NCBI GenBank assembly: GCA_000004985.1
Contig: GG738849.1
Direction: 5' to 3' (one strand)
From: Naegleria gruberi
Taxonomy: Eukaryota
Length of the DNA: 64,000 bases
The position numbers were made by a program, and so were the translations under genes. Positions 1-60,937 of this stretch are shown in pieces. Under the pieces are notes generated by a model that did not search any database, had not been told where the DNA came from, and saw nothing but the letters and a program-made list of their open reading frames with translations. Each line of letters starts with the position of its first letter. The stretch's first letter is position 1.

Positions 1-1066
1 ATAATAATAATAATGAAATATTAATTCATCCATTAGAATTAAAACAAGATATAAAAAATTCATTAAGTAATATTAATAATACTTATTTAAATTATTATAA
101 ATCTATTAATAATATAAATGGTAATAATAATAATAATAATATTAAAAATAGAAGATTAAATATTTTATTATCACATTTAAATATTATAAAAAATAATAAA
201 TATATTAAAAATACATTTCATTATATTAATAATAATAATAATAATTTAAAAAATAATTTAAATAAATTAAAAATAATAATATTAATAATATTTATTTTAA
301 TAATAATAAAAATTAAATTTAAAAATAAAAATATTAAAAATAATTTTACATTAATAGAAATATTAATAGCAATTTCCATAATGGTAACATTTAGTGGATT
401 AACAAGTATAGTATATAATGATAAATTAATAGAAAGTAAAATATCATTTACAAAAATAGAATTAAATTTAATAATACAACATGTCTATTTATATTATATT
501 CAATATAATAAATATCCAATTAAATTAAATGATATTGAAAATATTAAACAAATTACAAATTTAAATGATAAATGGAATCAACCATATATGTACATTCCAT
601 TTATAGATTGGTTAAAAATTATTGAAATTTTACAATCAAAACAAATTAATGAAAAGGAATTAAATTATAATTTAGAATGTTTACAATCTTTAATTAATTG
701 TTTAATTAATTCACAACAATCAATTGATCCTAAAATATTACTTGTTCAAAGTTCAATTCAACCAATTTTATTTTCATTTGGTTATAGAAAACCTATTTTT
801 GTATTTCAAAATGATGATTCAAATGATTCAAATGATTTTAATGATTCAAATAATAATTCATATATACAAAGTAATGAATTTAAAGAAAGATTACAATTGG
901 TTTCACAATGGATTAAAATTGCACGTGAAAAATCTGTAAGTTTTTTTATTATTTAATATTTACAATTTATATATAATTTAAATAGGTTGGGTTAATTAGA
1001 GTACAAAATACATTACAACAATTACAAAATCAATTCAATACTACTAGTAGTACTACTAATAAATAA
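1..1066 (+). CDS. Asn-rich low-complexity protein, unknown function. 5' end lies outside the window. Two exons: 1..935 and 986..1066, intron 936..985.
   Basis: The reading frame is open from position 3 in the same frame as ORF 381..956. GTAAGT donor at 936 and AG acceptor at 984-985 restore the frame, giving ...IAREKS|VGLIRVQNTLQQ...TTNK and a TAA stop at 1064-1066. The 50-nt intron is AT-rich. Confidence 0.5.
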
Positions 1067-1069
1067 TAA

Positions 1070-3801
1070 TTAAATTTGTTCAAATTCAACAATCTTTCCA
1101 CTTGCCAACATTCTTTGAACTGTGCTTGTTGATGTTGAAGATGATGCAGATGGTGGTGTATTCTTTTTCTTCTTACTCTTTTTAGAAGGTGGTGGTGTTG
1201 TTGAAGATTTGGTTTTCTTTTTCTTTTTTGGTTTTTCTTCTTCTTCATCATCGCTCATTTCATCAATATCACTACTACTCATTTCTATTTCTTCATCTTC
1301 TTCATCAATATCACTACTACTGCTACTCATATAATCTTTATTCTCTTCTTCTTCATTCTCTTCTTTATCATCATTTTCATTTCCATTATCATTATTATCA
1401 TTTTCATTAATATTACTATTAATAGAAATGATATCATGTAAATGAATTTGTTCTTTTCTATTTGCATATTTATTTTTAACATATTCTCTTGCTAATAAAC
1501 CTTTTACTAATTTTTTCCAATTATTTAAAAAACGTTCATTCTTTTTTTTAATTAATTTTTCTAATTTAACTTGTTGATATTTTAAATATTCCATTCTAAG
1601 TAATTGTTCATTTTTAGAATGTATAATAATACCATCATAAATAGGTATACTACGTTTATGTTTAAATTCAAAACCAATCATTGCTCTAGAATAATCTATT
1701 TTTAATTTTCTAGCAACAATTGTTAAACCTTTTAAAGGTTCATTATTTGTACTAATATGGCAACATCCAATTGGTAAAAATTTATCATTCCATAATTCAT
1801 ATGATCCTTTATCTGATTTTGGTATTTCATCATTTTCATTTATAATTGGTACTTGATAATCTTCTGTTTGCCATTCACCAAATAATTCTGTTAAATCTGA
1901 ATTTTTACTAAATTTAGAAGATTTTACTATTTTGTAAGGTTTTTCATTTAATTTTACTTTTTTAAAATAATCTCTTAACCATCTATCACGTGTATGAAGT
2001 GGTTTTATCCATTCTCTTAAATAAATTGAATGATTTTTAATTTTATTTATAGAATCTCTATCTTTGGGATATATTGTATCATATTTAGTAATAAATTTAT
2101 CAATTATATAAATTGGATGTGTTTGGAATTCTTGTATTGATGTTGGTATTTCTTTTAAAATTAAATTTTTAATTTCTTTAATTATTTTTTCATCAATTTC
2201 TATAAATGTATTATTTATATATATGGAATTATTTAATATTAATTCAGAATTATTTTTTATAATTAATTTATCTTGTTCTTTTTTAATATTATTATTATTA
2301 TTTGTATTATTATTATTTTTATTATTAGTAGTATTTTTATTATTAGTAGTAGTATTTTTTAAATTACTATTTATAGTATCTTTAATAATTACATCTTGTT
2401 CTTCATCATCATCTAATACATGTATAATTAAATCTTCATTTTCTAAATCAATAATTTCATTATTTTTAATTTCATTATTATTTATATTTATATTTTTAAT
2501 ATTATTATTATTTTCCATATTTGTAATAATATTATTTAAATTATTATTTTTTAATAAATAATTAGGATTTTTTAAATTAATTAAATTTTCATTAAATTCA
2601 AAAATTAAATTATTCATTAAAGTTTCAATTCTTAAATAATTTTCCTTTCCAATTAAAGTATTTGGATATTTACAAATTAAATATTTACTTGTTGTATTTC
2701 TAATAATAAAATTAAAATCTTTTAAAATATCAAATGAAAATACTATAATTGGAATTTGATTTGTTTTTTTATCTAATTTTTTAAAATATTTTTCTAAATT
2801 TTCAATTTTAATTTTTTCTACTTTAAAAGATTTATTTTTTAAAATTAATTTTTTAAAAATATTTTCACTTGTTGAATTTGGATTTTCATATTGAATTTCA
2901 ATCCAATTATTAAATTTAAATTCTTTCTTTTCTAATATTTCTATTTTTGTACAATATCTAATATTATAATTATTATAAATTAATGTAATTAAAATTAATA
3001 AATTTAATTCAAATATATTTTCAATATTTTTTTTAGAAATGTTAAAAATTACATTTTCAAAATTTTCTAAAATTTCAAATAAATTTACATTTTTAAATTT
3101 TTTAATTTTAAATTTTTTATATATAGTATCTAATAAATGATCAATAGATCTATTATCAATTAATTTTAATTCTTCTAATATACTTAATATAGTACCTTGT
3201 AATATTTCATTTTTAATAATTTCTAAAAATTTAAATTCATAATTAAAATAAATTAATAATTCTACAAAATTAATTGAACAATTTAATAATTGTTCTTTTT
3301 TAGTTTTTCTAATTATTTTTTTTCTTTTTTTAGTTTCATGTTCGTCATTTTCATTTTCTTCATTATTTATAGTAAATTGAATATATTCTTCACTTTCCAT
3401 ATTTGGTTCATCTATATTTGGTTCATCTTGTGGAATGACTTGTTCTTCCCATTCATCATTCTCTATATTTGATTCTGTTTGTTCTTCAAACATTTCAATT
3501 CTATCTTTTAATTCTTTAATAGTATCCAATTCTCTTTATATAGTAATATTAAATATTAAATATATTTAAATATTAAAATTTACCTTTCAATTTTTTGTTT
3601 CTTTTTTTTAACAACTTGCTCCTTTTCATATTCCTTTTCCTTTTCTTTTCTCTTTTTATTTTTAATTAATAATTGATCAATACTATGTGATGATTTGTTA
3701 TTTAAATTGGTAACAAGGCTTGTTTCTTCTTCATTGTCATCATCATCTTCATCGGAAGAAAAGGCATGTTTTGCTTTATATTTAACTCCGAAGGGTAACA
3801 T
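1070..3801 (-). CDS. XPC: XPC/Rad4 nucleotide-excision-repair damage-recognition protein. Two exons: 3801..3584 and 3533..1070, intron about 3534..3583.
   Basis: The C-terminal region GEWQTEDYQVPIINENDEIPKSDKGSYELW...FLPIGCCHISTN...ARKLKIDYSRAMIGFEFKHKRSIPIYDGIIIHSKNEQLL matches the BHD3 region of Rad4/XPC (WQTE.Y...PIGC..L....ARKL.ID.A.A..GF.F). ORF 3580..3801 starts with ATG at 3799-3801 and ends in a GTAAAT donor. The acceptor is ...tataaAG at 3535-3534 and the phases are consistent. The C-terminus is acidic and Ser/Thr-rich. Confidence 0.8.
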
Positions 3802-4036
3802 TTATGAGGGAGTATTATAGATGAGGATGTGGTGGTGGAGTATTATGGTGACAGGAGTTAATAATCGGTTGAGAGAGTAATGAAGTGTTTTTTGCGTTTT
3901 TTTAATTGAATTTTTTTTTATAGTCGAGTTCGAGTATGGACAAGAACTATTCATTTTCCTATTAGTGCGCACCCGTAAAATAGCCATGTAAAAATAACGA
4001 AAAATACGATTCAGGGATATAACAGAATTGATGTAA

Positions 4037-4108
4037 GGCGGCTTAGCACAGTGGCAGTGCATCAGTCTTGTAAACTGAGGGTCGAGGGTTCAATTCCCTC
4101 AGTCGCCT
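4037..4108 (+). tRNA. tRNA-Thr, anticodon UGU
   Basis: Cloverleaf by eye: acceptor GGCGGCT/AGTCGCC, D-arm GCAC-AGTGGCA-GTGC, anticodon stem TCAGT/ACTGA with loop CTTGTAA (anticodon TGT), 5-nt variable loop, T-arm GAGGG-TTCAATT-CCCTC. Confidence 0.85.
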
Positions 4109-4317
4109 TTCTTTCTTTTTAGCCGATACTTCCTATAAATTCTGCAAGTTTTGCACTTGGGATAAGAATACTCTTGGTTAATTATTTGGCGCCTATTTTA
4201 AAAGTATTTCAGCATCACTCACCGTTTTTCCATCTTTAAAAAAACTGTAAATCACCACCAACACAACTAGTCTCATCACAACTTCTACAGTAAGGTTCTC
4301 TATGTTGTTTAATAACG

Positions 4318-5910
4318 ATGATGAATAGAACCAACTCTTTTGAGACCAGACAACGAATACAAAATATGGTAAAGAGTAAGGAAAAACTCTTCTACCCACC
4401 TTCCGATGGTGAGACCGATTCTACCAACAACAGTTTGTTGTTACATGGAGGAGGGTCTTCATCGGTACAAACTTCTACCTTTGTGTCTTCATCTGCTCCT
4501 TCTTCACCTCAGAAAAAGACCTCTTCAAGACCATCAACAGCTCATAGAACTACTACTCCCACAAAATCAATATCTCTAGTTACTTCAGCCTATGAAAAGA
4601 AAATTGAAAGATTGGAAAATGAAAAGAGACTTCTTCAACATCAAGTTTCATCAGAGCAAGAAAATTCAAACAAAATCATGTTGGATTTGATACAAAGGAA
4701 AGCAAATGAGCTTAAACTTGACGATCAACAGGGGCAAACCCTCATGGATCTTGTTTCTAGCAAAACAACTATTGCTCGATTAAAAAAAGAGATGGCAATT
4801 CGAGATGAGCAATTATCAACAATGGAAAAAGATAGAGTTGAACTTGAACAAAGACTTGATGAGTGGATGAGGAGATCGGAAAACCAACAAACTCAAATAG
4901 ATAAATTAAATGATGAACATCAACATTCTCAAATCTCAAAAAAGAATCAAGATGAAAATTTGCAAGAAATTGAAAATCAAAATTTAGATTTGAGAAATAA
5001 GAATATTGCACTCGAAAATGAAAGAGAAATGTTGAGAAAAACTATTCACGAACAAGATAGCCAGTCTAAAAAATTAATTGAAAAGGTTGAAACTCTGGAA
5101 GCCAATTTGAGGCAAATGCTTGCTTTTCAAAGACAAAATCAACAGCTTAATTCTGAAAACCAGAGGCTAACTTCCCTTGTCCAAAATTTTGAATCTCAAC
5201 TGGGTCAAAAAACACAAGAAAACGATGAAATGAATAGAATGCAAGAAGAATTATTACGAGTAATTGCAGAAGAAAAGAAAAAAGTACAAGAACTCACTAA
5301 AAACTCGAGTGGAGATTCAATGCAGAGAGAAAAGACAGCAAAAGATAACGAGAGGTTGGAATTATTAGTGGATAAGTTGACTGCTGATTATAAAAAGAAT
5401 CAGAAAGAATTTTTAGAAATGAAACATCAAATGACCACTCAATTCCAAGAAAAGGAAAGTGCTCTTTTATCAGAAAATATGGTTCTAAAAAGAGAGTTAC
5501 AACACTATAAGGAAAAACTAGGAGAAGAACAAGTTAACCATCAACAAACTATCAATGATTACCAATCAAAAGTGAACCAACTAACAGAACAATTGAGGGA
5601 TCAAGTGGAATTGTATAAACGAACTGTTAGTGATCAGAATGAAGAATCTTCAAAACAAAAACAAAGGCATAATCAACAGTTAGCAAAGGTTAAAAAAGAA
5701 ATGCAGTCCAGTTATGAGATTATATCCATTCTAAGGGAAGCTAATAAGAAAATGGAGGAAAATTTTCTCAGTCAACAGAAAATCATTAATAGTATGGAAT
5801 TTGAATTGGACAAGGTCAATGCTCAAAACAAGGATTTAAAAGATCAAGTTGATATTCTAAAATTTAAGCTTCCAAAGATGTTTAAACTTGGAAATTCCCA
5901 AACAATGTAA
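4318..5910 (+). CDS. Coiled-coil protein with a Gln/Glu-rich heptad-like rod, unknown function. Single exon.
   Basis: 530-aa ORF with ATG start. Long predicted alpha-helical stretches of LENEKRLLQHQ-, LEQRLDEW- and LRQMLAFQRQNQQL-type repeats. AATAAA lies just after the stop. GC content is noticeably higher than the flanking genes. Confidence 0.65.
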   Translation: MMNRTNSFETRQRIQNMVKSKEKLFYPPSDGETDSTNNSLLLHGGGSSSVQTSTFVSSSAPSSPQKKTSSRPSTAHRTTTPTKSISLVTSAYEKKIERLENEKRLLQHQVSSEQENSNKIMLDLIQRKANELKLDDQQGQTLMDLVSSKTTIARLKKEMAIRDEQLSTMEKDRVELEQRLDEWMRRSENQQTQIDKLNDEHQHSQISKKNQDENLQEIENQNLDLRNKNIALENEREMLRKTIHEQDSQSKKLIEKVETLEANLRQMLAFQRQNQQLNSENQRLTSLVQNFESQLGQKTQENDEMNRMQEELLRVIAEEKKKVQELTKNSSGDSMQREKTAKDNERLELLVDKLTADYKKNQKEFLEMKHQMTTQFQEKESALLSENMVLKRELQHYKEKLGEEQVNHQQTINDYQSKVNQLTEQLRDQVELYKRTVSDQNEESSKQKQRHNQQLAKVKKEMQSSYEIISILREANKKMEENFLSQQKIINSMEFELDKVNAQNKDLKDQVDILKFKLPKMFKLGNSQTM

Positions 5911-6071: not shown

Positions 6072-9000
6072 ATGGCCTTACACAACAACACTCAACAAAA
6101 ATGGTTTGGCTTTGTGACCTTTTCGGAAGGAAATCACACTACTACAACCTTTAAACATTCAATCTCAATAATAATTTTAATAGTAATATTAATATTTCAT
6201 ACAAGTTCCGTACGATCATCGATAACACTGAGTAATTCCACTTGTTCAAAAAGCTCTCAGTTTTTTGATTCATCATCAATGTTCTGTAAGGATTGTTCCA
6301 CTAATGAAGTATCCACGGATGGATTGTATTGTTACTGTAATGAAGGGTATAAGCTCACTTTTACTACTTCATCAAAGACTTGTGAGCAATGTACATTCGC
6401 ATCTTCAAGAGATCGGTCAATTTGTATGACATGTGGACCTTCAACTTTGGGATTTGACTCTACTCTAAAAGACTGTAAATGCAATGGAACTTCAAAATTA
6501 GTTGAAATAGATGCAGGTGGAAATTATCTAAGTGCCAAACAATGCATTTCATGTGGTTCAAAATCAATTCCTCATCCTTCGAATAGATATTTGTGCTCCC
6601 CTTGTCCTGATCCACTGATGCAAGCAAGTACAGATGGAACTTCCTGTGTTTGCCCTTCTTCACATCAATTAGTAAGTTTAAAAAGATATTTAAATGATAA
6701 AAACATGAGTTTAGTGGTCTAATATGTGCATTCTGAAAGATGCCTACCTTGATATCAATAGCAAATATCCTATTGATTCATCTGCCTTAATAACCTTTAT
6801 CCAAGTATTCGAAAATAGTCGACAAGATACCCCGTCAACTGAATCTGTGAGATCAAAGTTATTTTATGATTACTTTTATCAGGCTGGAGCTCATTGTAAA
6901 TCATTACAAAATGTCACTGCTTGCCAAATGCTTGCAAACCTGTGTACCTTACTCTTGTATGATGAATCTACTCCTGCTTGTAAAATGTATTACTCCATTT
7001 TCAATACACTAACTGAGGACAGAGTAAATGGTTTCAGCGGTTGGAAGAATGGCCTTCCATGGTTAAAGTACACTGGAACAGCAAGTGAAAATTTGTACAA
7101 TACTGATTTGCTTCAATCTGTTGGATTGAGTGGAAGGAAGGATAGAGTATCACGATTACAGTTTTATCTCTCCAAATTCAATGTCTATGGAAATTGGTTA
7201 GGTTTTGAAGAGTTGACCAATCAATTAGAACTATGTCCAACAAGTAATTTTCAAGGATCTGGTTTTTTAGATTTTGGAAACAATTATGTTAAAAATTGTT
7301 TTTACAATGTCCTCTCCTTACCTTATTCCCAATCTACTTTCTTTTATGAACTTTGTAAGTAATATGTCTTGTTTCAAAGACTAACCATTCAATTCAGATA
7401 TTTTGGACAGTGGCATACTCTACCCAGTTCCAGTTCAAATTCTTAAAGATGACAAGACATCGTTCGCTGATATTGGTACAAGTACTCTCTACAGAAGGTT
7501 CTTCTTGTACGACAACCTTGCTGGGGTCACTACCGATGGTACAACTCCTTCCGTTGTTAGAATTTTGGAGAGTGCTCAGCTCTATGTATCATTAAATCCA
7601 TCAGTTTCAGAAAAAATTTATCCACCAACACTTACCTTAAAGTATACATCAAGAAAGATACAAAGTTCAACACTTTCAAAATTTGTAACCTCTGACACTG
7701 AATCAATAACCTCTCCAACAATTTCATTCTCTGCCTCCTATATCCAATCTCAACAAACACCTTGGATTATTGTTTTAGTGTTTGCAATTATTGGTCTAGT
7801 AGGAAGTCTATTGACATCCTGCATTGCTAGCTACAGATACTCAAGAAGAAGATTAGCACAAATAGACTTTCCAACTCTTGGAAAGTTTATATTTACTTTT
7901 TGTGCCCACTTTTCAAATTATTTATTTATTGTAATTATTGTAATTGTCTCTCTATACTATTTATTTTTCAAGTTACAAGACAGTGTGTTTATTTTGCTTC
8001 CAAATTTTGATGGAGCTGATAAGTGGTATTTCTTTGTCATTGTTTTTGTAGCTCTATTGGGTAAAACCCTTGATTTAGGTTATGAGTTTTATAAGCATTG
8101 CAGTTATGATATTTTCTTTATGGATTGGGAAAAGTCAAAAGGAAAAGTAGTTGGAGTTGGAGGAAGAGCTGAAGGATCTTATTCATCAGTCAGTATATGG
8201 AGAAGCTATTTCATTGCTAAAGAATGGGAGAAACTCCAAGAATTAACATGGACTAGTTTGGAATTCACATTGATTCTGGTTCTTCTTATTTTAGATGGAG
8301 GTAATGTAATTCAATTAGCATCTACATCACCATTGGAGAATAAGATTCTTACAAATTATCCTAGTCATCCTATTTTGAGACTTGCACTCTTGATGTGGTT
8401 CTACTTGTCCATATCATTGCTGCAATATTTGTTTTTCAAATTTGTATTGTACAGATTTACTAGAAATCCAATCACTTCACTCATTGATACATGCTCAATT
8501 GCCAATATCAGTATTGTAATACTTGACGAATTACATTCAGGATGTTATATTCATGGTGAGAGTATATTCCGTTTTGCAGATTCTAATATGAAAGAGTTTT
8601 ATGAGGGCCTTTCTCTTGAGAGTAATGATTTCTTTCCAAAGAGAGGATTGCTTCAAACCTCGAGTGAACAGAAAAGAAATGTTGTATTAACATTTGATTT
8701 GTACATTTCAAGGTCTGTCAGAGAAAACTATGATAACTTCCTTCTCATTCCAATTCAGGAGGAGGAAGCAAAGAATGGTTTTTTAAGAAGAGCAGTAGGA
8801 AACCAGAGGGGTGTTTCAAATCAAAGACCAAACATGCCCCAAGTTAATACTTTCAATAATAATAACCAATTTCCTCCAAATCCTCAAAATCATGAAACCC
8901 AACAACCTAATCCAACAAATCCTGTCACTCTTAATCCTCCAATTGAACAACCCATCCAACAGACAATGAGAGAGAGAAACCAAATCAACAATCCTCTTCT

Positions 9001-9484
9001 CAATTCTCCTCTACAAGGTGATTTTAGAATTAGTGATATTTTCAACTTTAATGTAGGCCAAAAGAGTAGATACATTCCAGCAGCATTTATTGATGGTTAC
9101 AATACAATCAATGAATATTTCAAGAGAGTTGTGACTGATGTAAAAATCAAACAAGGACAAATTTTGGACAAGCAACTTTCCTACAGATTAGGATTTACTC
9201 CAGATTTTATTTATCAACACGATAGAGAATTTTTCTTTAAGGATGACTATGAACATTTTTTCCAAAACTATTCCTTCTTTAGGGTAATGTTGAGAGGAAC
9301 TGAATGGAAAATGATCTTTTTCAATATTCTCTTGTTTGCCATTCTGAACATTTTCTGGGAATCAGTTTTTGGAATACTAATGATTGTTTATGTTATTAAT
9401 AGAGGATTTTTGTGGTTGAGACGTAATTTTGTAAGGAAAAACTTAATCTCAAAAACATTACTTGATAGAAGATTTTTGTTTTAA
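6072..9484 (+). CDS. TMEM67: Meckelin (TMEM67)-like protein with a Cys-rich ectodomain and a multi-pass membrane C-terminus. Three exons: 6072..6671, 6715..7354, 7398..9484.
   Basis: N-terminal signal peptide and a Cys-rich region (CKDCSTN, CYCNEGY, CEQC, CMTCGP). Motifs NVTACQMLANLCTLLLYD, GWKNGLPWLKY and SKFNVYGNWLGFEEL align with human meckelin CQALGNMCVMNMNSYD, WRQNLPWLFY and AAQYSLNGNFLGWQD. The C-terminal half carries several hydrophobic TM segments. Two 43-nt introns (GTAAGT...AG at 6672..6714 and 7355..7397) join the three ORF-track ORFs in consistent phase. Confidence 0.7.
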
Positions 9485-9651: not shown

Positions 9652-11667
9652 ATGAAACATTCAATTAGCAGTGACAAGGGTAGTACTAATCATATAATAG
9701 TTGAATTTCAATTATTTATATCGAATGCAATCAAGGCTGATTTGAGGAATATTTCCAAGACTTTAAATCAATCAAAAGACTTTTATCAAGAACAACAACG
9801 ACAACAAGCCTCTCGATTCCTATCTATATTATATGGTGGTGATGAAAATGATGATGAGAATGATAATTTATCACTTAAAGATAAAATTGAAAAGGTGATC
9901 AAGCCTTGCATTAAATTAATTTGTGGATTTATTCATAATTTATCATCAAAAGAAAAGATTTCTAAAGAATCAATATTGAATAGATTAATATCAAATTGTA
10001 AATTGACTATTTATGTATTATTTGAAATATTCATGTATCCGAATAGTAGTATATTGAAGAATAGTTTAGTTTCTAATAAGGATGATGATAATGATGAAAC
10101 TATGAATAATAATTTGGATGAAGACAATTCTATTATAATTAATTCAGAAATTGCTTCCTACTTTGGTTTATATGATGAATTAGTTTGTTTTATGATCATG
10201 TTTAGTTATGATGAAAACTTTTTAGAAACTTTAACTTTAATGAATCCACAACGATTCTCCAATATTAAGGTTGAACACTCCAGTGAATTGATGAAACAAT
10301 TTCTAAATAGAATATTTAATTGGATTTGTGTAACAAGTGTTGAGAATGAAATTCAACATCAACTCTCTTCACTTGGTTATCAAATTGTGTTTAAACATTT
10401 AATTCATTCAATTCAAAATGTTATATTTAAATCATTGAATAATAATGGTAATGGAATTGGATTTCATTCAACTCATATGAATATTGCAAAGTATTGGTTT
10501 AGAAAATTGTGGAAACATGATAGTTCATTAATGAAACCTCATTTAATTGAATTGTTGAAGAGATTGTTTATTGTAATGAAAGTGAAGAGAACTAATCAAT
10601 TTCATTCAACATTTAATATTTATATGAATGAATTAATTCAATCTCTAATGAAATCTAAAACAACATCCTCAACAGATGAAGAAGCCACTGAAGAAGATTT
10701 TAGTAAATTCATTCTTCAATCATTGAAAGAAATAATTACAAATACAACTGAGGAAATTGAGGCAAAAAATCAAGCAATTATAATGTATTACAATTTATTA
10801 ATTGATGATATTGATAATATTGAAGATCATAACAGTTCAATTGTCAAATCATTTGTTGAATTAATGTTTGATAAGGTACTATTCACTAATAAGAATGCAG
10901 ATTGTAGAATAACAGCATTGGAAATGATTCAGAAAATTGTTGAATCTAAATTTTACAAACGTAGAATTAATCAGCAATCAAATAATCAAGCGAATATTGT
11001 GCCAATTAATAGAATCCTCAACCAAACATCACATGTTTTGAAATTTGATCCAAATCAAAGTGTTAGGAAGGTCTCTTTTGATTTATGGTTGTTGATTTTC
11101 GATTTATTACCTCAACAAGGAGATGACAACAATAATAATCAGCAACACAATTTACTAATTCTCTCAAACATGTTACATATTAAATCAAGAGATAAAGAAA
11201 AGAGAATTAGAGTTAAAGTTTTTGAAAAGATTACAGAGATGGGAATTTTCAGATTCAATCAATCACTTTTAGAACAAATGAAACATCAAGATGAGTATTC
11301 TGAACCAATCGTTTCTAACAAATCATTGAAACTCACAAGAATAGTTCGTACAAAGAAGATTTCCAATGATTCTAATCATTCAACATTGGTTTGCCATGTT
11401 TTAAGGGAAATTCTAATTATTGGAATGTTGGATGAGGAGAAGAAAGTAAGAGATTTGACAGAGCAATTATTTGTAGATTTGGTATTGTCAGAGTTGAATC
11501 CATTAGAATTGATGAAAGAATTGGAGGAGAGTTATCATGAAATTGTAAGAACAACTACAGTTATTGGTAGCAGTACAGATGAGCGTTCACAAAAACCCAC
11601 TTGTTGGGCTCTATTTGAGGGTGTTCTAAAAGGAAACATTAACAATCTCTATTCAAAGCAGTTATAA
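9652..11667 (+). CDS. Large helical-repeat (HEAT/ARM-like) protein of unknown function
   Basis: 671-aa uninterrupted ORF with ATG start. The amphipathic helical-repeat character runs throughout the sequence. I recognise no confident family motif. Confidence 0.55.
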   Translation: MKHSISSDKGSTNHIIVEFQLFISNAIKADLRNISKTLNQSKDFYQEQQRQQASRFLSILYGGDENDDENDNLSLKDKIEKVIKPCIKLICGFIHNLSSKEKISKESILNRLISNCKLTIYVLFEIFMYPNSSILKNSLVSNKDDDNDETMNNNLDEDNSIIINSEIASYFGLYDELVCFMIMFSYDENFLETLTLMNPQRFSNIKVEHSSELMKQFLNRIFNWICVTSVENEIQHQLSSLGYQIVFKHLIHSIQNVIFKSLNNNGNGIGFHSTHMNIAKYWFRKLWKHDSSLMKPHLIELLKRLFIVMKVKRTNQFHSTFNIYMNELIQSLMKSKTTSSTDEEATEEDFSKFILQSLKEIITNTTEEIEAKNQAIIMYYNLLIDDIDNIEDHNSSIVKSFVELMFDKVLFTNKNADCRITALEMIQKIVESKFYKRRINQQSNNQANIVPINRILNQTSHVLKFDPNQSVRKVSFDLWLLIFDLLPQQGDDNNNNQQHNLLILSNMLHIKSRDKEKRIRVKVFEKITEMGIFRFNQSLLEQMKHQDEYSEPIVSNKSLKLTRIVRTKKISNDSNHSTLVCHVLREILIIGMLDEEKKVRDLTEQLFVDLVLSELNPLELMKELEESYHEIVRTTTVIGSSTDERSQKPTCWALFEGVLKGNINNLYSKQL

Positions 11668-14733: not shown

Positions 14734-14830
14734 TGATCAGAGTGGGATTTGAACCCACGCCCTTGCGGAACACGGTATTAATATTAGTTTTACCTTAACG
14801 TGTCGTCTTAGACCACTCGACCATCTGACC
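14734..14830 (-). tRNA. tRNA-Leu, anticodon AAG, with an intron of about 17 nt 3' of the anticodon
   Basis: Reverse complement reads GGTCAGATGGTCGAGTGGTCTAAGACGACACGTTAAGG[TAAAACTAATATTAATAC]CGTGTTCCGCAAGGGCGTGGGTTCAAATCCCACTCTGATCA. It has a class-II long variable arm, T-arm GTGGG-TTCAAAT-CCCAC and a 7-bp acceptor stem with one G-U pair. The AT-rich insert sits at the canonical 37/38 position. Confidence 0.75.
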
Positions 14831-14943: not shown

Positions 14944-17900
14944 ATGTATGCACAATTTTCAGGCTTATTTAAGGTTGGGGAGACAGTGTACGTTAATCAT
15001 CCAACAGAGTCATGGATAGTCGGTAAAGTTGATGCAGCCGATAAGAATAACAAAAAGGGAGCCTATTCAATAAAACCAGTTGCGAGCCTTAACGACTCTT
15101 TAGCTAATGAGGTAAGTTGGAATCATCATTATCTAATGGTAGTAATTTTATATGTACACCAATATTAAGAACCCTATAAATGTTAATGAGGATCAATTAT
15201 TTAAATACACAAATGACTTGGATAAACTTGATCATGATGATTTGTTATCAATGACAGAACTTCATGAAGTGACTCTTCTAAATTGTTTAAGAAATAGATA
15301 TAAAAAGGATGTAATTTATACATTGATTGGAGGAGTTTTAGCTATAGCAATGAATCCTTTCAAATGGACAATTCCCTATGTTCAAGATGATAAGATGGAC
15401 TTGTATTGTAATAAGGGAAAGAATTCAAATCTTCTTCCACATGCTTGGAGTATTGCTGATAATGCCTATCGAATCATGAAGGAAACAAAACAAAATCAAT
15501 CCATTCTTATTAGTGGTGAATCTGGTGCAGGTAAAACTGAAGGCTGTAAGACAGTCATCAAATATCTATCTAAATTATCATGTTCAATAACAACTGATGA
15601 AAAAATTAGAGAAAATGCTTCGGGTATTGCTATCAAGATACAAGAATGTTCTCCAATTCTAGAAGCTTTTGGTAATGCTAAAACTCAACGTAATGACAAT
15701 TCATCGAGATTTGGTAAATTTATTATTATGCAATTCGACAAGGAAGGTGTAATTTTAGGAGCCTATATGTATAATTATCTATTGGAAAAATCAAGAGTAA
15801 TATCACAACCACTAGGAGAAAGAGGATATCACATTTTCTATCAATTATTGGCCGGAGCTGATGCAAAGAGAAGAAAGGAATTATATTTATCAAAGGCTGA
15901 AGATTATTCTTGCATTAATCAAGGTAAATGTTTTACAGTCAATGGTGTGGATGACGGAAAAGAATATGCAGAAGTTATAAAGGCCATGAATATTGTGGGT
16001 ATTTCTCAAACTGAACAAGATGCCATCTTCCGAATTACAGCAGCTGTATTACATATGCAAAATTTGAAATTTAATCTTAGAGGTGATGGATCTGAAGTTG
16101 AAAACAAGCAAACTTTAAAGAATGTTGCAGAACTTTTAAGAGTTGATCAAGTTGGTCTTGAAAAGGCTCTTACAACAATGTATGTCTCTGCAGGAAAGGA
16201 CTTGATTTTGAAAGGTTTAGTACCTGCTAAGGCATGTGATGCAAGAGATGCTTTTTCAAAGGCGTTATATGATGCTGTATTTAACTGGATTATTAAGAAA
16301 ATTAACGAAAATCTCGATTCATCAAAGCAACATAAGGTTGATAACTTTATTGGATTGTTGGATATTTATGGTTTTGAAGCTTTTGAAAAGAATAGTTTCG
16401 AACAATTGTGTATCAATTTTGCCAATGAAGCACTTCAAGGAGTTTATAATAATTACACTTTTAAGAAAGATGTGGATGAATGTAGAGAAGAAGGTATTGA
16501 AGTTACATCAGTTACATTTAATGATAATCAAGAATGTATTGAATTGATTCAAAAGGGTGTTGTCAATTCTTTAACTGATTGTTGTAAATCTAGCTCTACA
16601 GATATCGACTTTTTGGAAAAACTCAAAAAGGCCTATTTGAAAAAGACAGGATTCTTTGATGCTTCTCCATTGAAAAAGGAAGATTTTATTGTTAGACACT
16701 ATGCAGGTGATGTATCATATAATGTTACTGGGTGGATTGAAAAGAATAAGGATACTCTCAATGGAGACTTGTTCAAATTAACCAAGACAAGTACTTGTAA
16801 TTTTATTAAGGACCTTTTGGAAGATACTGGTAATGCTAAAGACACTGTTGGTGAATCATTCAGAAAACAACTTAACAATTTATTAACCACTATTAATTCT
16901 ACTAGGCCTCACTATATTAGATGTCTTAAGCCTCACCCTGCTAAGAAACCAAACATGTTCAGTGTTACTGAAGTTATGAATCAATTGAGATCATCTGGTG
17001 TTTTGGAAACTGTTAAAATCAGAAGAGAAGGTTACAGTGTAAGAATGCCTTTTGATCAATTCTATCACAAATTCAAGATACTTCTCCCACCAGCCCAACA
17101 AAAAGGATCTACCAAAGAAGAAATGAGAGTATCATGCGAAGAAATTATCAAATCAGTCAAGTTTGATAAAGTTAAAGCACAAATTGGTAAATCAACAGTA
17201 TTCCTTCGACACTATGCTTACTCTGATTTGGAATCATTGAGAAATGAAAAGCTCGTTCAATATGTGATAACAATTCAAGCATCCTTTAGAAAACTCAAAG
17301 CTATTAAGGAAGTTGCAACTATGAGAAGACTCAAAAAGGAAGAAGAAGAAAGAATTTACTTTGAAAAACATAGAGAAGAAATTGAAAGAAAGAGAAGAGA
17401 AGAAGAAGAAAAACTTCGTATAGAGAGAGAACGTATTGAAAAGGAAGAAGCTGAAAAGAGAAGAATTGAAGAAATCAAAAGACAAGAAGAAGAAAAAATT
17501 GCTAGGGAAAAGAGAGAACGTGAAGCTGTTATCCTTAAGGAACAAGCCAAACTTAACAAGTTGAGAGAAGTTCAAATGAAAAAGATGGAAGAACTCAAAC
17601 GAATTGAAGCAGAAAAGGAAGAAAGAGAACGAGTTAAAAAGGAATTGGAAGAACTCGAATCTGGTAAAGCCAATATGGAAGAACAAGAAAGTGTCAAGAT
17701 TTGGAAAGTTGATGAAGGAAAGCTTGTTGGATTTACTCTCAGTGAAGCTAGAAAGGATTTAATTTTCCGTATCAAAACTGATCAACTCTTTACTCTAGAA
17801 GAATGTAAAATATTAATCAAGGAAATTGTTAGAATTATGAAACGAGATGCTGAAAGAGATTTTAAGAATTTGATATTCCTAAGCAAGTTTAGAACAGAAG

Positions 17901-18331
17901 TTTTATTCCCAAAACCTATTGTATCTGATTATATTTCAGAAACACATGGATTGGATGGATTTGCTGATAGTATTGATGTTAAAAAGATGATTTATGGAAA
18001 GGTTACAATTCGTCCATTAGATCCACTTTCAAGTAAGGATACCATTCTCATTGCTAAGGAAAAACTCAAATTACTTGTATTGAATATTAATAAGAATATT
18101 GTCAAGTTAATTGATAATGCTCTCAGACAACGAAAAGAAAGACTTTTAATTATTGCAACCATTTTAGAAGAATTGGAAACAAGTGTCATCAAAAAGTACT
18201 TGCATCCAAATGAACTTTTAGTTGTAATGGCAAAGATTAAGAGTCAATCCACTAGTAATTCCAATGCTGCATCCCAACAACAACAACCTCAACAACAATT
18301 TGCATCTGCCTCCGAAGAAAAATTGTTTTAA
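14944..18331 (+). CDS. Myosin heavy chain: N-terminal SH3-like domain, motor domain, IQ motif, long ER/K-rich single alpha-helix (SAH) domain and a short tail. Two exons: 14944..15111 and 15170..18331.
   Basis: Exon 1 encodes MYAQFSGLFKVGETVYVNHPTESWIVGKV..., then a GTAAGT donor at 15112 and an AG acceptor at 15168-15169. The motor domain carries the P-loop GESGAGKTE, switch/relay motifs such as LDIYGFE, and the IQ motif IQASFRKLKAIK. Residues around 740-870 form an EEEERIYFEKHREEIERKRREEEEKLRIERERIEKEEAEKRR... SAH-type segment. Confidence 0.85.
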
Positions 18332-18335
18332 AAAA

Positions 18336-19646
18336 ATGGGAAAACGTAAAAAACAAAATAATAATACATCAACTACTACTTCAACTACTAACAGTGGAGA
18401 AAATGATGGAGAAAATATTCTAGTCTCCATACACGAAGGAGAAGAAACAATATTGGAAGAACCACCAAATAAAAAGAATGAACCTAAAATTATACAATTA
18501 TTATTTTCCAAATCCTTTCTAAGTATTGAACAAGCTTGTGAAACTATTCAAACAATTTTAGAAGATGAAAATAATCAACAAGATTCAATTAAAATGTTAA
18601 AAAATCATAAAGCTATTGAACGATTAATTGAATTATTAACAATTGAAAAACATAATCCAATTATTTTAGAAAGTACAAAAGCTTTGAGAAATTTAAATCT
18701 TGTTGATGAAAGTATTTTTACAAATATGGAAAGTGAATTAATTAAACAATTATTTAAATCAATTAATTATTTACAAACAAGTGATAATAATTTACATCCT
18801 ACAATGATTTATGATCATAAAGATAAAACAAGTATTGAAAATATTATAAATACAATTTTAGAATTTTTAATTCAATTAATTCCACAATTTACAGAAATAA
18901 TTTTAAATAATTTAGATTTAAATATTTTAAATATTTTAAAAAATCAATATAAAGAAAAAGTTTTAAAAATTATTTATTTAATTACAAAGGAAATTGAAAC
19001 TAACGTATTTGGTGATTTATCTGATTTATCCGAAAATGGAATTATTAATACTTTTATAAATGGAATTTCAATTAATTTGAAAAATTATGAAAAAATTGAT
19101 AATATTTTAAATGATATTAAAAATTCAGAAAATTTATCTCTAAATTTAGAAATTTTAATTCATTATGTAATTAATAATGAAATTTATAATTCAAAAGAAA
19201 TTTTTGAAATTTTAATTAAATTATTAAAAACAAATGAAATTTTAATTTTAGAATTATTAAATATTATTAATGAAAAAATTGATAATATTGAAATTATTGA
19301 ATATATTTTAAATAATTTTAATTTATCAAATTATCCAAATTTGTTAATTCAATTCGGACAAATTAATCAATTTAAAAAGAAAATTTTAAATTTATTTATA
19401 GAATCAATTAATCAATGTAAAGATTTACCAATTTTATTAGAATTATTAAATGGAATTTTTGATGTTTATGCAGATGAAAAGGGAATTGAAAAGGAATTAT
19501 TAAATTTATTACCATGTTTGGAAGGTGTAGTTAAAAATAAATTATTAACAGAAACAAATGATGAAGAATTGTTAGAATATATTGATGAAACTTTGGAAAA
19601 TTTAATTAATTACATTGATTATATTAAAAAATCATGTCAACAATAA
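18336..19646 (+). CDS. Leu/Ile/Asn-rich helical-repeat protein, unknown function
   Basis: ATG at 18336 (MGKRKKQNNNTSTT...) lies only 4 nt after the myosin TAA stop. The listed ORF start at 18264 overlaps the myosin CDS and is unlikely. Open frame of about 436 aa ending in TAA, with no recognisable catalytic motif. Confidence 0.5.
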   Translation: MGKRKKQNNNTSTTTSTTNSGENDGENILVSIHEGEETILEEPPNKKNEPKIIQLLFSKSFLSIEQACETIQTILEDENNQQDSIKMLKNHKAIERLIELLTIEKHNPIILESTKALRNLNLVDESIFTNMESELIKQLFKSINYLQTSDNNLHPTMIYDHKDKTSIENIINTILEFLIQLIPQFTEIILNNLDLNILNILKNQYKEKVLKIIYLITKEIETNVFGDLSDLSENGIINTFINGISINLKNYEKIDNILNDIKNSENLSLNLEILIHYVINNEIYNSKEIFEILIKLLKTNEILILELLNIINEKIDNIEIIEYILNNFNLSNYPNLLIQFGQINQFKKKILNLFIESINQCKDLPILLELLNGIFDVYADEKGIEKELLNLLPCLEGVVKNKLLTETNDEELLEYIDETLENLINYIDYIKKSCQQ

Positions 19647-19757
19647 AAAAACATTTAAAGTTTCTTTTTTTGTAAAGTATATTTATTGTAAAAATGTAAA
19701 TTAAAAGTTATTAAAAAGTGTTGATATGTTTTGTAATTTTTTTAATAATAAAAAAAA

Positions 19758-21530
19758 ATGTGTGGTATTGGATTTTATGATTCACAATGTATTCTATCAT
19801 CATCATCATTAGAATTATTAAATAATAATAATTTAATTCATTCCGATGATGAAGATGAAGATAGAGTTGGTAATAATGATGAATTGAATAACAAGAGCAA
19901 TTCATCATTATCATTATCAAATAGTAATGATGATAATAATGATGAAAATTGGAATGAAATTGAAAGTTTAATTGAAAATTTAATAATTAAAAGAGGACCT
20001 GACTATTTAGGAAAATTAAAATTTAATAATTTTACATTTATTTCAAGTGTTTTATCATTGAGAGGTGAAAATGTTACAATTCAACCAATTTCAAATTCTG
20101 ATCAAATATTATTATGGAATGGTGAAATATTTAATTATCCAAATATGGAAAATGAATTAAAAAATGGTAATGATACAAATTTATTATTTGAATTATTAAA
20201 TAATAATATTAATGATAAAAAACAAATAATTTCTATATTTAATAATATTCAAGGACCATTTGCATTTATTTATTTTAATATTAAATTTAATTATTTATTA
20301 TTTGGAAGAGACAAAATTGGAAAGAGAAGTTTAGTTTATTATTATTCTAATGGAAAGTTGATTATTTCTAGTAATAGTATTCCTGGAATGGAATTTAAAT
20401 CAATTCCACCATTTATATTTCAATTAAAAAATAACCAATTAAAGAAATATGAATATAAAAGTAATTTTATTAATAAGGAAAGAATTTTATTTAAAGAATT
20501 ACAAGATTTACATTCAGAAGAATATAAAAATGTATTAAATGATTTTTATAGAATTTTTTCAGATTCAATTTCTAAAAGAATTAATTTTTTACAAAGACCA
20601 AAATTAACAAATTTGGAAAATACTAAAAATGGAAGTGAAAACAATTTAAATGATATTGAAAATGAAGCAAATTATGCAATTTTATTTTCTGGTGGAATTG
20701 ATTCACTTGTTTTAGCTTCACTTTCACATTTAAATTCATTAAATAATTTAAATGAAAAAATTACATTATTAAATGTTTCATTTGGTAATTCATTGGAACA
20801 AGTATCAAAAGGACATGATAGAATTCAATCTATTCAAGCATTTAAAATGTTAAATGATAAATATGGAAATAGATTTAATTTAGTATTAATTGATGTTTTA
20901 AAAGCACAAGTTGAAGAATATGCCAATACTATTAAACAATTAATTTATCCAAACAATACAGTATTAGATTATACTATTGGATGTGTATTATGGTTTGCTA
21001 GTAGAGGAAGAGGGTATTTATATGGGAGTGATACAAGTCAATTGGTACAATCTCAAAGTAGAGTTTTATTGTGTGGAGTTGGAAGTGATGAACTACTTGG
21101 AGGTTATCGAAGATATCTTAAAAGATTCAAAGATGAAGGATGGGAAGGTTTAAATGAGGAAATGAATATGGATGTAAATAGATTGTGGTATAGAAATTTG
21201 GGAAGGGATGATCGAATTATTGCATCACATGGAAGAGAGTGTAGACATCCATTCTTGGATGAGAATTTAATTGAATTTGTTCAATCACTTCCACTCAGTT
21301 TTACTGTTGATTTGAGAGATAAGATTGAGTTTGAAATTAAGGAAGGTTGTAATAATTCAACTAAATTCCAACAAGCTAAGGATAAACTTTTGTTAAGACA
21401 AATGGTTTCTCAAATTTTAGAACTTGAATCCAATCAACCTAAAAAAGCCATGCAATTTGCTTCCAATGTTGCTAAAATTACCTTAACAACAAGTAGAAGA
21501 AAAGAAAGAGGAAATAAACGTATTGATTAA
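19758..21530 (+). CDS. Asparagine synthetase domain-containing protein (ASNSD1-like class-II glutamine amidotransferase)
   Basis: MCGIGF at the N-terminus gives the Ntn-amidotransferase catalytic Cys2. The SGGIDS PP-loop of the asparagine-synthetase domain is present. An Asn/Asp-rich insert follows. Single 590-aa exon. Confidence 0.75.
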   Translation: MCGIGFYDSQCILSSSSLELLNNNNLIHSDDEDEDRVGNNDELNNKSNSSLSLSNSNDDNNDENWNEIESLIENLIIKRGPDYLGKLKFNNFTFISSVLSLRGENVTIQPISNSDQILLWNGEIFNYPNMENELKNGNDTNLLFELLNNNINDKKQIISIFNNIQGPFAFIYFNIKFNYLLFGRDKIGKRSLVYYYSNGKLIISSNSIPGMEFKSIPPFIFQLKNNQLKKYEYKSNFINKERILFKELQDLHSEEYKNVLNDFYRIFSDSISKRINFLQRPKLTNLENTKNGSENNLNDIENEANYAILFSGGIDSLVLASLSHLNSLNNLNEKITLLNVSFGNSLEQVSKGHDRIQSIQAFKMLNDKYGNRFNLVLIDVLKAQVEEYANTIKQLIYPNNTVLDYTIGCVLWFASRGRGYLYGSDTSQLVQSQSRVLLCGVGSDELLGGYRRYLKRFKDEGWEGLNEEMNMDVNRLWYRNLGRDDRIIASHGRECRHPFLDENLIEFVQSLPLSFTVDLRDKIEFEIKEGCNNSTKFQQAKDKLLLRQMVSQILELESNQPKKAMQFASNVAKITLTTSRRKERGNKRID

Positions 21531-21550: not shown

Positions 21551-24500
21551 TTATAGTCTAAAGGTTACCTTGTTCAAATTCTTTCCTGGCTTTAATGAGA
21601 ACATCTTATTATTGTCCCATTCAAATCTAACAAACTTTAAAATTTCCATTGGTTTCAAAGGTGATCTTACATAATTTGGATCAATTTCAAATGTCTTGAC
21701 ATTTCTATTAGTGACACCTAATAATTGTAAAATAGTTCCTCCACTTCCAGCATCTGTATTCCAAACCTTACATGTCTTTTCAGCTGCACTGAAAGAACAC
21801 AAATATTGACCATTTGGTGAAAAACTCAAAGCATCAAGTGAAGCAGAAGGTTGACCTTTTTGACTCTGCTTTTGAGGTTGTTTCTGGTGAGCTTCAAATA
21901 GTTGCCATTTACTTGCTGTACGCATATCATAAATACAAACTGTACCATCATTAATTGAACCAACAGCTAACTTTTGTTTTTCTTGATGGAATGAAACCAT
22001 TGGATAAATTTCAACCATGAAACGAAGAATATTTGTCGAGTTGGCCATACAAATATCTCTAATAGCAGGGAAATGAGGATCCAAAACTTTCAATAATAAA
22101 GATGTCAATACAACTAAATGATCCATTAAACATTTTGGATGTCTTTGCATGACTGGGAATAGAGAACTAATTGCTGCATTGAGTGTGGTTGTACTTGTTT
22201 GTTGAGCATTTGAAATGATATTCGTAATAAAATCGATATAGAGAGGAGTATCTGCACTTGCCATGTTAACAAATGCTTGGAGTGAGTCAATAGCAAGTTG
22301 ACTAATCTCAGCAGCTGAACTATTAGAAGAAGGTACTTGTGAAGTAAGGGCTGGTAAGGAAATTTGGAAAAGTTGTCTACAGAATCCCATTGGATCAGGA
22401 ATATAAAACTTCCAAATTGAATAAGCATCACCCAACAAAGTAATTGCTGTACTATGTTGTGGACCTCCCTTCTCTAAAATATCAATCAATTCCATTGCTG
22501 TCAGAGTGGCAATTCTTCCATCAACAGCTCTTGGAACTCTGTATGCCAACAAGGCGAGGGCAACAACAAAGTTTTGTCTTTGGGTATTAATTTGCTTTGA
22601 TGAAGTCTTGTTAGAACTTTCGATGATCATGTTTGCAAGTTTTTCAGCTAAAAGTTTGTGTTGAACAGGTTCCATTCTTTGAAGTACACTGTACATTACT
22701 GATCTAGCAGCTTGTTGTACATCCTTTGTTTGATCTTTCAAAAATTGTGCACACCACAAGAATGATGGTTCTTGGAAGTTATCAAATCCGGTGTGAATTT
22801 GATTGAGGAAATAAGTTATGCAATCATTACAGGTTTTTTGGAATTTGAGAGTGGCAGGTAAATTAGCACTGATAGCTGTCAATACAGAAACAGCACCAAT
22901 CATATAAATAGAAGATAATACAGGTGAGAAAATAAATGGATGGCAATTATCACTCATACTTGGAACAATAAGTGAATAAGTTTCACCTGCACCTTTCAAT
23001 CCAATAAATCCTTTAGGATATGGTGCTAAATTATCAATCATTGAAAAATCTGATGTATCATTGTGTTGTCCTTGAATTCTTAAAATTGCAAAACGAATTT
23101 CATGTCTAAGTTGTTTAAGTGAAGGATCATTTCCATATTGTAATAAATATGAAAGGGATGTTAACAGAGCTGACATATTTCTGTCGTTAATTCTATTTTC
23201 AATTTCATCTTCAGGATTAACAGATGTGTTTGATAAATCTCCATCACTAAAATATTTGAGGAATAAATTCTTCTTAGAGTTGATAAATGTAACACATCTT
23301 CTAACACTAATGGTCAATAATTGAATATCTGGTGTTTGTTCATTCACTTGAAGTGATATGGATTCTATGAATCCTTTAGCCTTATTATAGGCCTCAGATG
23401 TTGCTGATTGTTTAGAGAAGGACAATTTAACAATACCAGAAGAACCAATAGATCCAGATCCTTGACTATTAGAACCAGATGATGTACTTGGATCAGATTG
23501 ACCAAAACTGCCACTAATAACACTCGATTGTTCACTTGTCTTGATCAAATACTTGGCAGAAGCTCCAGAAACTCTTCTTTCCAATAGACCCGTACTTATA
23601 CTCCAAACATACACTGTACCATCACTACATTGAACAAGTAAATAATCCAAATCACTTCTCCAATAAATTGCAACAACTGTACTTCCATGTCCACCTAAAA
23701 TATGAATGACATCCAAAGTCTTGACACTGTACATTATAACACTGTGATCATCATCTGAAAGAGAACAGAAGCAGTTTTGCAACTTTCTTCTTATTGTTCT
23801 TGGAGGAACAAAGAGTAAATCAACCTTACCAGAGTGATAATTGAAAGATCTCAACAACTTGTGATATTTGAGATCTGTAGAATCCAGTTGCCAAACCTTA
23901 ATGCTATAATCTGCACTTCCTGAAAGTAAAAGTGGATTGTTGTCATCATCACTCATGACAAGCAGTGTAGTAACACGTTTTTTGTGAGCATTTTGAATGT
24001 ACAATTCTTGTGAATCTTCTTTACCATTATTTTGTGTAGTAGTATATTGAATATGAACATCACCATTATGGAAGCCCCTAATTAAACATGGAGAAATACG
24101 CTCAACAGCAAAATGAGAAACACTGATAGGAGACTTGTTTGTTAAGCTATTTTCTTTTACAGTATTGGAAGTATTCCATCCCTTGGCAAGTCTATTATCA
24201 CTTGATAGCAGTGTAATATCAACTGTTGAAGATGAAATAGTAACTTTCCAAATGATAATAACATCGTTATTAACACGTAAAAGAATATTACTAATTGGAT
24301 CGTATTGCCAAACAAAATCACCATATGGATCATTTTCAGAGAGAGCACTATCAATAACTTTAACAATTTTTGGTTGTTCCTTTTGAGCAACTCTGTCAAA
24401 GTTTGGAGTAGAAGGTGAAGAAGAAAGTTGTAAAGCATCCATAATAGAAGTAGAGAATGCTCTTTCAATAGCAGCACCAATAGATGTTAAATCATTTGAT

Positions 24501-25954: not shown

Positions 25955-26306
25955 GTTTTCAAAAAATCCAAAATATTTAAAAACACAAAGTGATGATGAT
26001 TTTGCTGCACCCGATGCGATGTTGAATTTTTTTTTAAAATAAAATCTTTTTCGATTGAAAATCATATTTGGAAATCACCAAGAAAAAGAAGATGAAAAAA
26101 TTTAAAATGCACTAAATCTCAAATTCTCAAATACCATCACAGTATTGTATGTATTACATCTTACATCCAATTAGAATATACTCATGGTGGTTGAACTCTA
26201 AGCTTTTTGTAAATGTTGCGCTTATTGATGGGCAATGAAGAGAACACGTAAACAAGCTTAAGTTAGAAGAAACACACTTGATACTATTTATAAACTTTAA
26301 AAAAAA

Positions 26307-60817: not shown

Positions 60818-60937
60818 CGGCTACGGCCATATCACGATGAATGCACCTCATCCCGTCCGATTTGAGAAGTTAAGCATCGTCGAGCCACATCAGTACTGAG
60901 GTTGGAGACAACTTGGGAACCTGTGGTGCTGTAGTCT
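60818..60937 (+). rRNA. 5S ribosomal RNA gene, solitary chromosomal copy
   Basis: GGCTACGGCCATATCACGATGAATGCACCTCATCCCGTCCGATTTGAGAAGTTAAGCATCGTCGAGCCACATCAGTACTGAGGTTGGAGACAACTTGGGAACCTGTGGTGCTGTAGTC matches universal 5S blocks (CGGCCATA, CCCGTCCGAT, GAAGTTAAGC, AGTACT, GGGAA, GGTGCTGTAG). It includes GGTTGGAGACAAC, as I remember it from D. discoideum 5S. The terminal helix GGCTAC/GTAGTC is complementary. Confidence 0.8.

Follow-up and report, generated by a model that had tools for sequence, protein, structure and literature searches.

The stretch of Naegleria gruberi DNA analysed here (the window; 64,000 nucleotides of contig GG738849.1) carries, on the + strand of its first 10 kb, a gene for an orthologue of meckelin (TMEM67/MKS3), a membrane protein of the ciliary transition zone. 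With great confidence, the gene can be read as the nuclear meckelin orthologue of N. gruberi, NAEGRDRAFT_62841, and its product as most likely belonging to the MKS module of the flagellar transition zone, as one of its membrane components. The building blocks of the gene, which spans positions 6072-9484, are three + strand open reading frames (ORFs; 6072-6722, 6724-7362 and 7403-9484), and splicing via two GT..AG introns of 43 nucleotides (nt) yields a coding sequence of 3327 nt which encodes 1108 amino acids (aa) and a stop codon without interruption. At a G + C (GC) content of 31%, frames that stay open over 200-690 codons greatly exceed what chance would produce. The same architecture of three ORFs and two 43-nt introns, giving a protein of about 1,100 aa, had been proposed in an earlier reading of this stretch (the original prediction), and it is borne out by the canonical intron borders and by the public gene model.

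Both splice junctions are supported by the public N. gruberi protein, which shows 100% identity across each of them, and the peptides at the junctions are colinear with the meckelins of Willaertia magna and human, as well as with other orthologues. The peptide formed across intron 2 (FFYEL-Y-ILDSG) is likewise colinear with its Willaertia and human counterparts. The codon boundary, phase and 43-nt length of intron 1 are all identical in the W. magna orthologue (positions 10586-10628 of its locus L002), while the Willaertia gene lacks an intron at the site of N. gruberi intron 2, where the tblastn alignment is continuous. The occurrence of a 43-nt intron in both taxa suggests that the minimal intron length may be tightly constrained in these heteroloboseans.

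The spliced protein belongs to the meckelin family on the basis of its sequence, its architecture and its predicted fold. Meckelin (PF09773) was the single Pfam family identified by hmmscan, with an E-value of 3.1e-160 and a score of 535.4 bits (cut-off 25), the match covering nearly the whole profile (positions 4-824 of 825) and residues 175-1107 of the protein. This profile search, which the original prediction had put forward as a check on its identification, thus came out in favour of meckelin, and the outcome named there as its refutation, a lack of a Meckelin match with an unrelated Cys-rich receptor family in first place, was not observed. A phmmer search against all Protein Data Bank (PDB) chains, in which the match among solved structures stood in for a reciprocal match to human TMEM67, returned human meckelin (7FH1) alone (E=2.3e-80; aa 58-861 and 978-1107 aligned). 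An AlphaFold2 (AF2) model was built as a monomer on the public 1039-aa version of the protein with 26 homologues, and reached a mean predicted local distance difference test (pLDDT) value of 79.4 and a predicted TM-score (pTM) of 0.71. The sole significant Foldseek match of this model in the PDB was again 7FH1 (E=1.1e-47; TM-score of 0.80 normalised to the target), the next match having an E-value of 0.18. Human meckelin forms a homodimer with an extensive interface, while the Naegleria protein was modelled in its monomeric form.

The protein is a type-I-like glycoprotein: a signal sequence leads into an extracellular 'arch' domain rich in Cys, which is followed by a domain rich in beta-sheet, a membrane domain of seven helices and, on the cytoplasmic side, coiled-coil helices. 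The same order, including a Cys-rich domain with around 24 Cys residues, is found in human meckelin (7FH1). Hydropathy analysis places a hydrophobic stretch near the N-terminus, a signal or anchor, at aa 29-47 (nt 6156-6212) and, past the ectodomain, seven hydrophobic segments centred near aa 546, 597, 632, 705-712, 751, 780 and 1068-1078. Helices in the AF2 model, which superposes on 7FH1, correspond to these seven segments. The ectodomain (within aa 1-420) contains 24 Cys residues, 20 of which are invariant across seven diverse orthologues. This count fits the 11 disulfides of the Cys-rich domain and the additional one in the beta-rich domain of human meckelin (PMC8565905). The signal peptide, Cys-rich ectodomain and polytopic C-terminus of the original prediction were therefore all recovered. 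Overall identity to human meckelin is only about 22-29%, yet the two proteins share the motifs CQxLxNxC, LPWLxY, RRFFLxD, DWEKxKG, VSIWR and YIHG. Three motif pairs singled out previously also align at the expected positions, namely NVTACQMLANLC with human NLTSCQALGNMC, GLPWLKY with NLPWLFY, and YGNWLGF with RGNFLKW, although the human member of the third pair had been given incorrectly as NGNFLGW. Nothing in these data contradicts the meckelin identification. By contrast, an analogy drawn earlier to the Cys-rich domain (CRD) of Frizzled receptors finds no counterpart in the protein, since hmmscan detected no Frizzled/Fz family in Pfam and no class-F structure occurred among the Foldseek matches listed, where the G protein-coupled receptors (GPCRs) present were only weak class-C and class-B matches (E>=1). 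The study describing 7FH1 likewise found both the CRD and the transmembrane topology of meckelin to be unlike those of class-F GPCRs (PMC8565905).

The public model of the gene, NAEGRDRAFT_62841 (XP_002681565.1 / EFC48821.1 / UniProt D2V212, 'Meckelin'), is 1039 aa long, has both introns in common with the spliced model and is 100% identical to it over its entire length. It begins, however, at Met70 (nt 6279), and consequently lacks the signal/anchor, the QFFD motif and the first conserved Cys. F65 in the QFFD motif is invariant across the seven diverse orthologues, and a hydrophobic signal stretch precedes this motif in all six sequences with a complete N-terminus in the seven-sequence alignment, the spliced model among them, while Cys58 of the spliced model aligns with Cys49 of human meckelin. 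The ATG at nt 6072, located 161 bp past the stop codon of the upstream gene, is the sole in-frame ATG that takes in the signal stretch, the QFFD motif and Cys58. The 1108-aa model of the original prediction is preferable to the public start, as judged from sequence conservation, because it restores these three elements. With the start corrected, the protein gains 69 residues, among them a conserved cysteine and those of the signal sequence, which is of relevance for its expression or tagging.

A second distinguishing feature is a low-complexity insert near the C-terminus, which is visible as a gap in the alignment with 7FH1 between query residues 861 and 978 and in columns 1200-1330 of the orthologue alignment. 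It is predicted to be disordered (pLDDT <50 at residues 815-899 of the public 1039-aa protein). The protein sequence is conserved on either side of it, indicating that the insert is coding sequence rather than a missed intron, and a comparable insert is present in W. magna and one metagenomic relative. The W. magna protein (ABK040_005683), from another heterolobosean, is the next-best match of the N. gruberi meckelin, with 57% identity over 98% of the protein, and shares with it the N-terminal signal peptide in addition to the insert and intron 1. The genes neighbouring the Willaertia meckelin differ from those in N. gruberi. The features of the gene and of the remainder of the window are given in Table 1.

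Table 1. Coordinates of the meckelin gene, its parts and other features located in the window
Feature	Position (nt)	Strand	Content	Basis
Exon 1	6072..6671	+	aa 1-200: start codon, signal/anchor, first half of Cys-rich domain	ORF, splice reconstruction, hydropathy, alignment to human meckelin from C58 (human C49)
N-terminal codons absent from public model (69)	6072..6278	+	Public protein begins MFCKDC	
Intron 1	6672..6714	+	43 nt, phase 0, GTAAGTTT...GTTTAG (GTAAGT...TTTAG)	Junction also in public model
Exon 2	6715..7354	+	aa 201-414: remaining Cys-rich domain, then start of beta-sheet-rich domain; motifs NVTACQMLANLC, GLPWLKY, YGNWLGF	
Intron 2	7355..7397	+	43 nt, phase 1, GTAAGTAA...ATTCAG (GTAAGT...TTCAG)	Junction also in public model
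Exon 3	7398..9484	+	aa 414-1108 and stop: beta-sheet-rich domain, seven-transmembrane (7TM) domain, cytoplasmic helices, C-terminus ...KTLLDRRFLF	
7TM domain within exon 3	approx. 7754-8557, plus TM7 9332-9454	+		Hydropathy, AF2 secondary structure, Foldseek match 7FH1
Asn/Pro/Gln-rich low-complexity insert	8807..9061	+	aa 884-968, ~85 aa	Composition, alignment gap, pLDDT
Rad4/XPC-like gene (NAEGRDRAFT_62839)	1070-3529, on to about 3800	-	AT-rich; Asn/Ile/Lys-rich protein	
tRNA-Thr(TGT)	4036-4109	+	Between Rad4-like and coiled-coil genes	
Coiled-coil ORF	4318-5910	+	530 aa; directly upstream of meckelin	
NAEGRDRAFT_62842	9652-11667	+	671 aa, 27% GC; orphan	
Second tRNA match	14734-14830	-	97 nt	Rfam; missed by ARAGORN
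Myosin heavy chain	15152-18331	+		Motor-domain match E=5e-213
SYO1/Arm-like ORF	18264-19646		AT-rich; Asn/Ile/Lys-rich protein	
Asparagine-synthase-like ORF	19758-21530		AT-rich; Asn/Ile/Lys-rich protein	
WD40-repeat protein	21551-26065	-	1504 aa	
5S rRNA gene	60819-60937	+	Full-length; alone among protein-coding genes	Rfam RF00001, 105 bits

Naegleria gruberi is an amoeboflagellate and a classic model of de novo basal body and flagellum assembly, in which a gene of the ciliary transition zone is to be expected. Naegleria amoebae differentiate into swimmers with two flagella, the basal bodies of which are assembled de novo, and the transition zone is structurally conserved, electron microscopy having revealed basal and terminal plates as well as fibres running from the doublets to the membrane, which have been read as Y-links (PMC4819266). 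The host thus builds flagella with a transition zone. MKS1 and MKS3 are listed in a 2016 review among the conserved genes mass-induced in Naegleria differentiation and predicted to code for basal body proteins (PMC4819266, citing Fritz-Laylin & Cande 2010, J Cell Sci 123:4024), and the meckelin of N. gruberi was hence already known, both as an annotated protein (UniProt D2V212) and as a gene reported to be induced (PMC4819266). The MKS module of the transition zone includes meckelin as one of its membrane components in mice, Caenorhabditis elegans and Paramecium (PMC4635004, PMC8535419), and in Paramecium depleted of MKS3 the cilia are short or missing and the basal bodies misoriented (PMC8535419).

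The structure of the gene, the family and fold of its product and the identity of its host are established by the present analysis. The localisation of the protein and its gating role would follow by orthology from work in animals, C. elegans and Paramecium, where MKS-3 proteins of the same family belong to the MKS module at the ciliary base, together with the reported co-induction of MKS3 with basal body genes in Naegleria. Under such a scheme, the gene would be transcribed at the switch from amoeba to flagellate and its product would enter the secretory pathway through the signal sequence, to be incorporated at the flagellar base as the MKS module assembles alongside the de novo basal bodies and flagella. 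There, meckelin may help to anchor the region of the Y-links and ciliary necklace to the membrane and may contribute the membrane side of the transition-zone gate, thereby gating the flagellar compartment. The setting differs from that of the human protein, in that Naegleria makes motile flagella de novo rather than primary cilia.

Some observations leave room for a function beyond the flagellum. Human meckelin lacks both the 28 residues which precede the signal stretch in the Naegleria protein and the insert of ~85 aa, which sits between a cytoplasmic helix and the C-terminal helices, and mammalian TMEM67 has a separable, non-ciliary Wnt function that is mediated by its ectodomain (PMC12119803). 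In analogy to such non-ciliary roles in mammals, meckelin may have a second role in the amoeba stage. A stronger version of this argument would hold that the protein is a true N. gruberi meckelin with its main role outside of the flagellum, such as in endoplasmic reticulum (ER)-associated degradation, actin or membrane organisation or the sensing of extracellular ligands by the amoeba, its transition-zone role being secondary or lost. The separable ectodomain function and the lineage-specific disordered insert can be cited for it. So can the observation that no meckelin of Naegleria fowleri or Naegleria lovaniensis was returned although both species form flagellates; if this absence were real, the protein would be dispensable for Naegleria flagella. 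Such a primarily non-flagellar role is nevertheless improbable. The reported induction of MKS3 together with the basal body genes (PMC4819266) speaks against it, as does the conservation of the whole architecture, including the transmembrane domain and the C-terminal helices, with that of the human transition-zone protein. The named orthologues retrieved, furthermore, derive largely from lineages that build cilia or flagella. Among them are Volvox, the diatom Thalassiosira, the nemertean Lineus and Paratrimastix, the lineages of which make cilia or flagella at some stage of life.

As regards the other Naegleria species, neither an N. fowleri nor an N. lovaniensis meckelin was found in the word-limited protein search, although the proteomes of both are covered by the database, as searches with the coiled-coil gene upstream of meckelin retrieved both species and those with the Rad4-like gene retrieved N. 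fowleri. At the N. fowleri locus of the coiled-coil orthologue FDP41_001373 (VFQX01000023.1:268773-291055), no meckelin is encoded within 10 kb on either side and no other gene of the window is held in common, so that synteny is broken, while NAEGRDRAFT_62842, located downstream of meckelin in N. gruberi, has no detectable homologue and provides no synteny anchor. Loss of meckelin in the lineage of the pathogen N. fowleri and of N. lovaniensis, both of which still form flagellates, is conceivable on this basis but rather doubtful, and a more mundane explanation may be that the gene is unannotated there or was missed by the search. Were the loss true, the sister species of Naegleria would allow flagellum assembly to be compared in the presence and absence of MKS3.

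The original prediction had placed the gene in an apparently non-ciliated dictyostelid and, provided that this host was correct, had taken the retention of meckelin there as a sign that the protein acts independently of cilia, for instance in Frizzled-like CRD signalling or in ER quality control, with a mis-assigned or contaminating sequence as the alternative. The meckelin part of that claim holds, on the strength of the PF09773 and 7FH1 matches, while the dictyostelid part does not, the host being the flagellate-forming N. gruberi, a member of Discoba/Heterolobosea and not of Amoebozoa. The low GC content of the window (31%) and the Asn/Ile/Lys-rich proteins of some of the neighbouring genes, which are dictyostelid-like in look, are the features that lend themselves to such a reading, and the AT-rich, Asn/Ile/Lys-rich neighbours probably gave rise to it. 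However, the best database match of the meckelin protein is the 100% identical NAEGRDRAFT_62841, and the ORF that follows downstream (9652-11664) corresponds exactly to NAEGRDRAFT_62842, which lies on the same scaffold of 850,158 bp. A further ORF, at 26643-27416, shares a >=90%-identity cluster with N. gruberi XP_002681569, a UFD1-domain model that is longer (346 aa). On the upstream side, two genes away from meckelin and beyond the coiled-coil gene, even the AT-rich Rad4-like gene matches NAEGRDRAFT_62839 at 97%, with N. fowleri (65%), W. magna (51%) and then Percolomonas as its next relatives. No dictyostelid or other amoebozoan was present among the 27 meckelin matches, obtained in a word-limited protein search rather than a survey of Amoebozoa. 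A dictyostelid host is ruled out by the exact and cluster-level matches to N. gruberi loci, and the window is N. gruberi nuclear DNA throughout. As N. gruberi forms flagella (PMC4819266), there is next to no likelihood that the gene persists in a non-ciliated host, and the paradox of a ciliary gene in such a host is removed. A ciliary gene in a cilium-free organism would have pointed to a cilium-independent role of a human disease gene, but with this premise being false no such role is indicated.

The meckelin gene (GC content of 0.337) and the coiled-coil gene at 4318-5910 (0.331) are indeed richer in GC than the genes flanking them (0.179 for the Rad4-like NAEGRDRAFT_62839 and 0.272 for NAEGRDRAFT_62842), as had been remarked, but they are not anomalous. 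The GC content is 0.311 for the window as a whole and has a median of 0.326 over 3.4-kb windows, 23% of which equal or exceed the meckelin gene, and the published value for the N. gruberi genome is 35% (PMC6125883). The two genes are thus ordinary in GC and the surrounding genes are the AT-rich outliers, several of them having 10-20% GC over long stretches; strongly AT-rich yet coding stretches occur at 1-3600 and 18400-21000 (8-23% GC in 200-nt steps). The GC content of the meckelin gene is no sign of foreign origin. Contamination or a chimeric mis-assembly, with the gene of a ciliated organism lying within foreign AT-richer DNA, is accordingly an exceedingly improbable and also unnecessary explanation of the contig: sharp steps in GC, located around 3.6 kb, 9.5 kb and 18.4-21 kb, could be taken to favour it, but the shifts are gradual inside ORFs rather than at junctions, the meckelin gene equals the window and genome norm (PMC6125883), GC-typical and AT-rich genes alike match N. 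gruberi loci 62839, 62841 and 62842 on one 850,158-bp scaffold, and the Rad4-like gene appears, on our own reading of the sequence, to have the same short GT..AG intron style. In view of the native character of this AT-rich gene, with its heterolobosean nearest relatives, a contaminant or chimera was rejected.

Among the neighbouring genes, the coiled-coil gene has no Pfam family and homologues only in Naegleria, and a functional link between it and meckelin was considered but could not be established on these grounds. The Naegleria homologues are FDP41_001373 of N. fowleri, with 760 aa and 49% identity, and C9374_004689 of N. lovaniensis. No entry of the protein collection is identical to the coiled-coil ORF, implying that the public model, if any, differs, and, in view of the longer N. 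fowleri protein, the ORF may be short of 5' sequence. NAEGRDRAFT_62842 likewise matches no Pfam family, and a search of 5.8 billion protein clusters retrieved only the protein itself. The exact ORFs of the myosin and the WD40-repeat protein are also absent from the protein collection, and their public models therefore differ. The tRNA at 14734-14830 probably contains an intron, and the end of the myosin ORF extends, in a different frame, some 70 nt into the AT-rich ORF that follows it.

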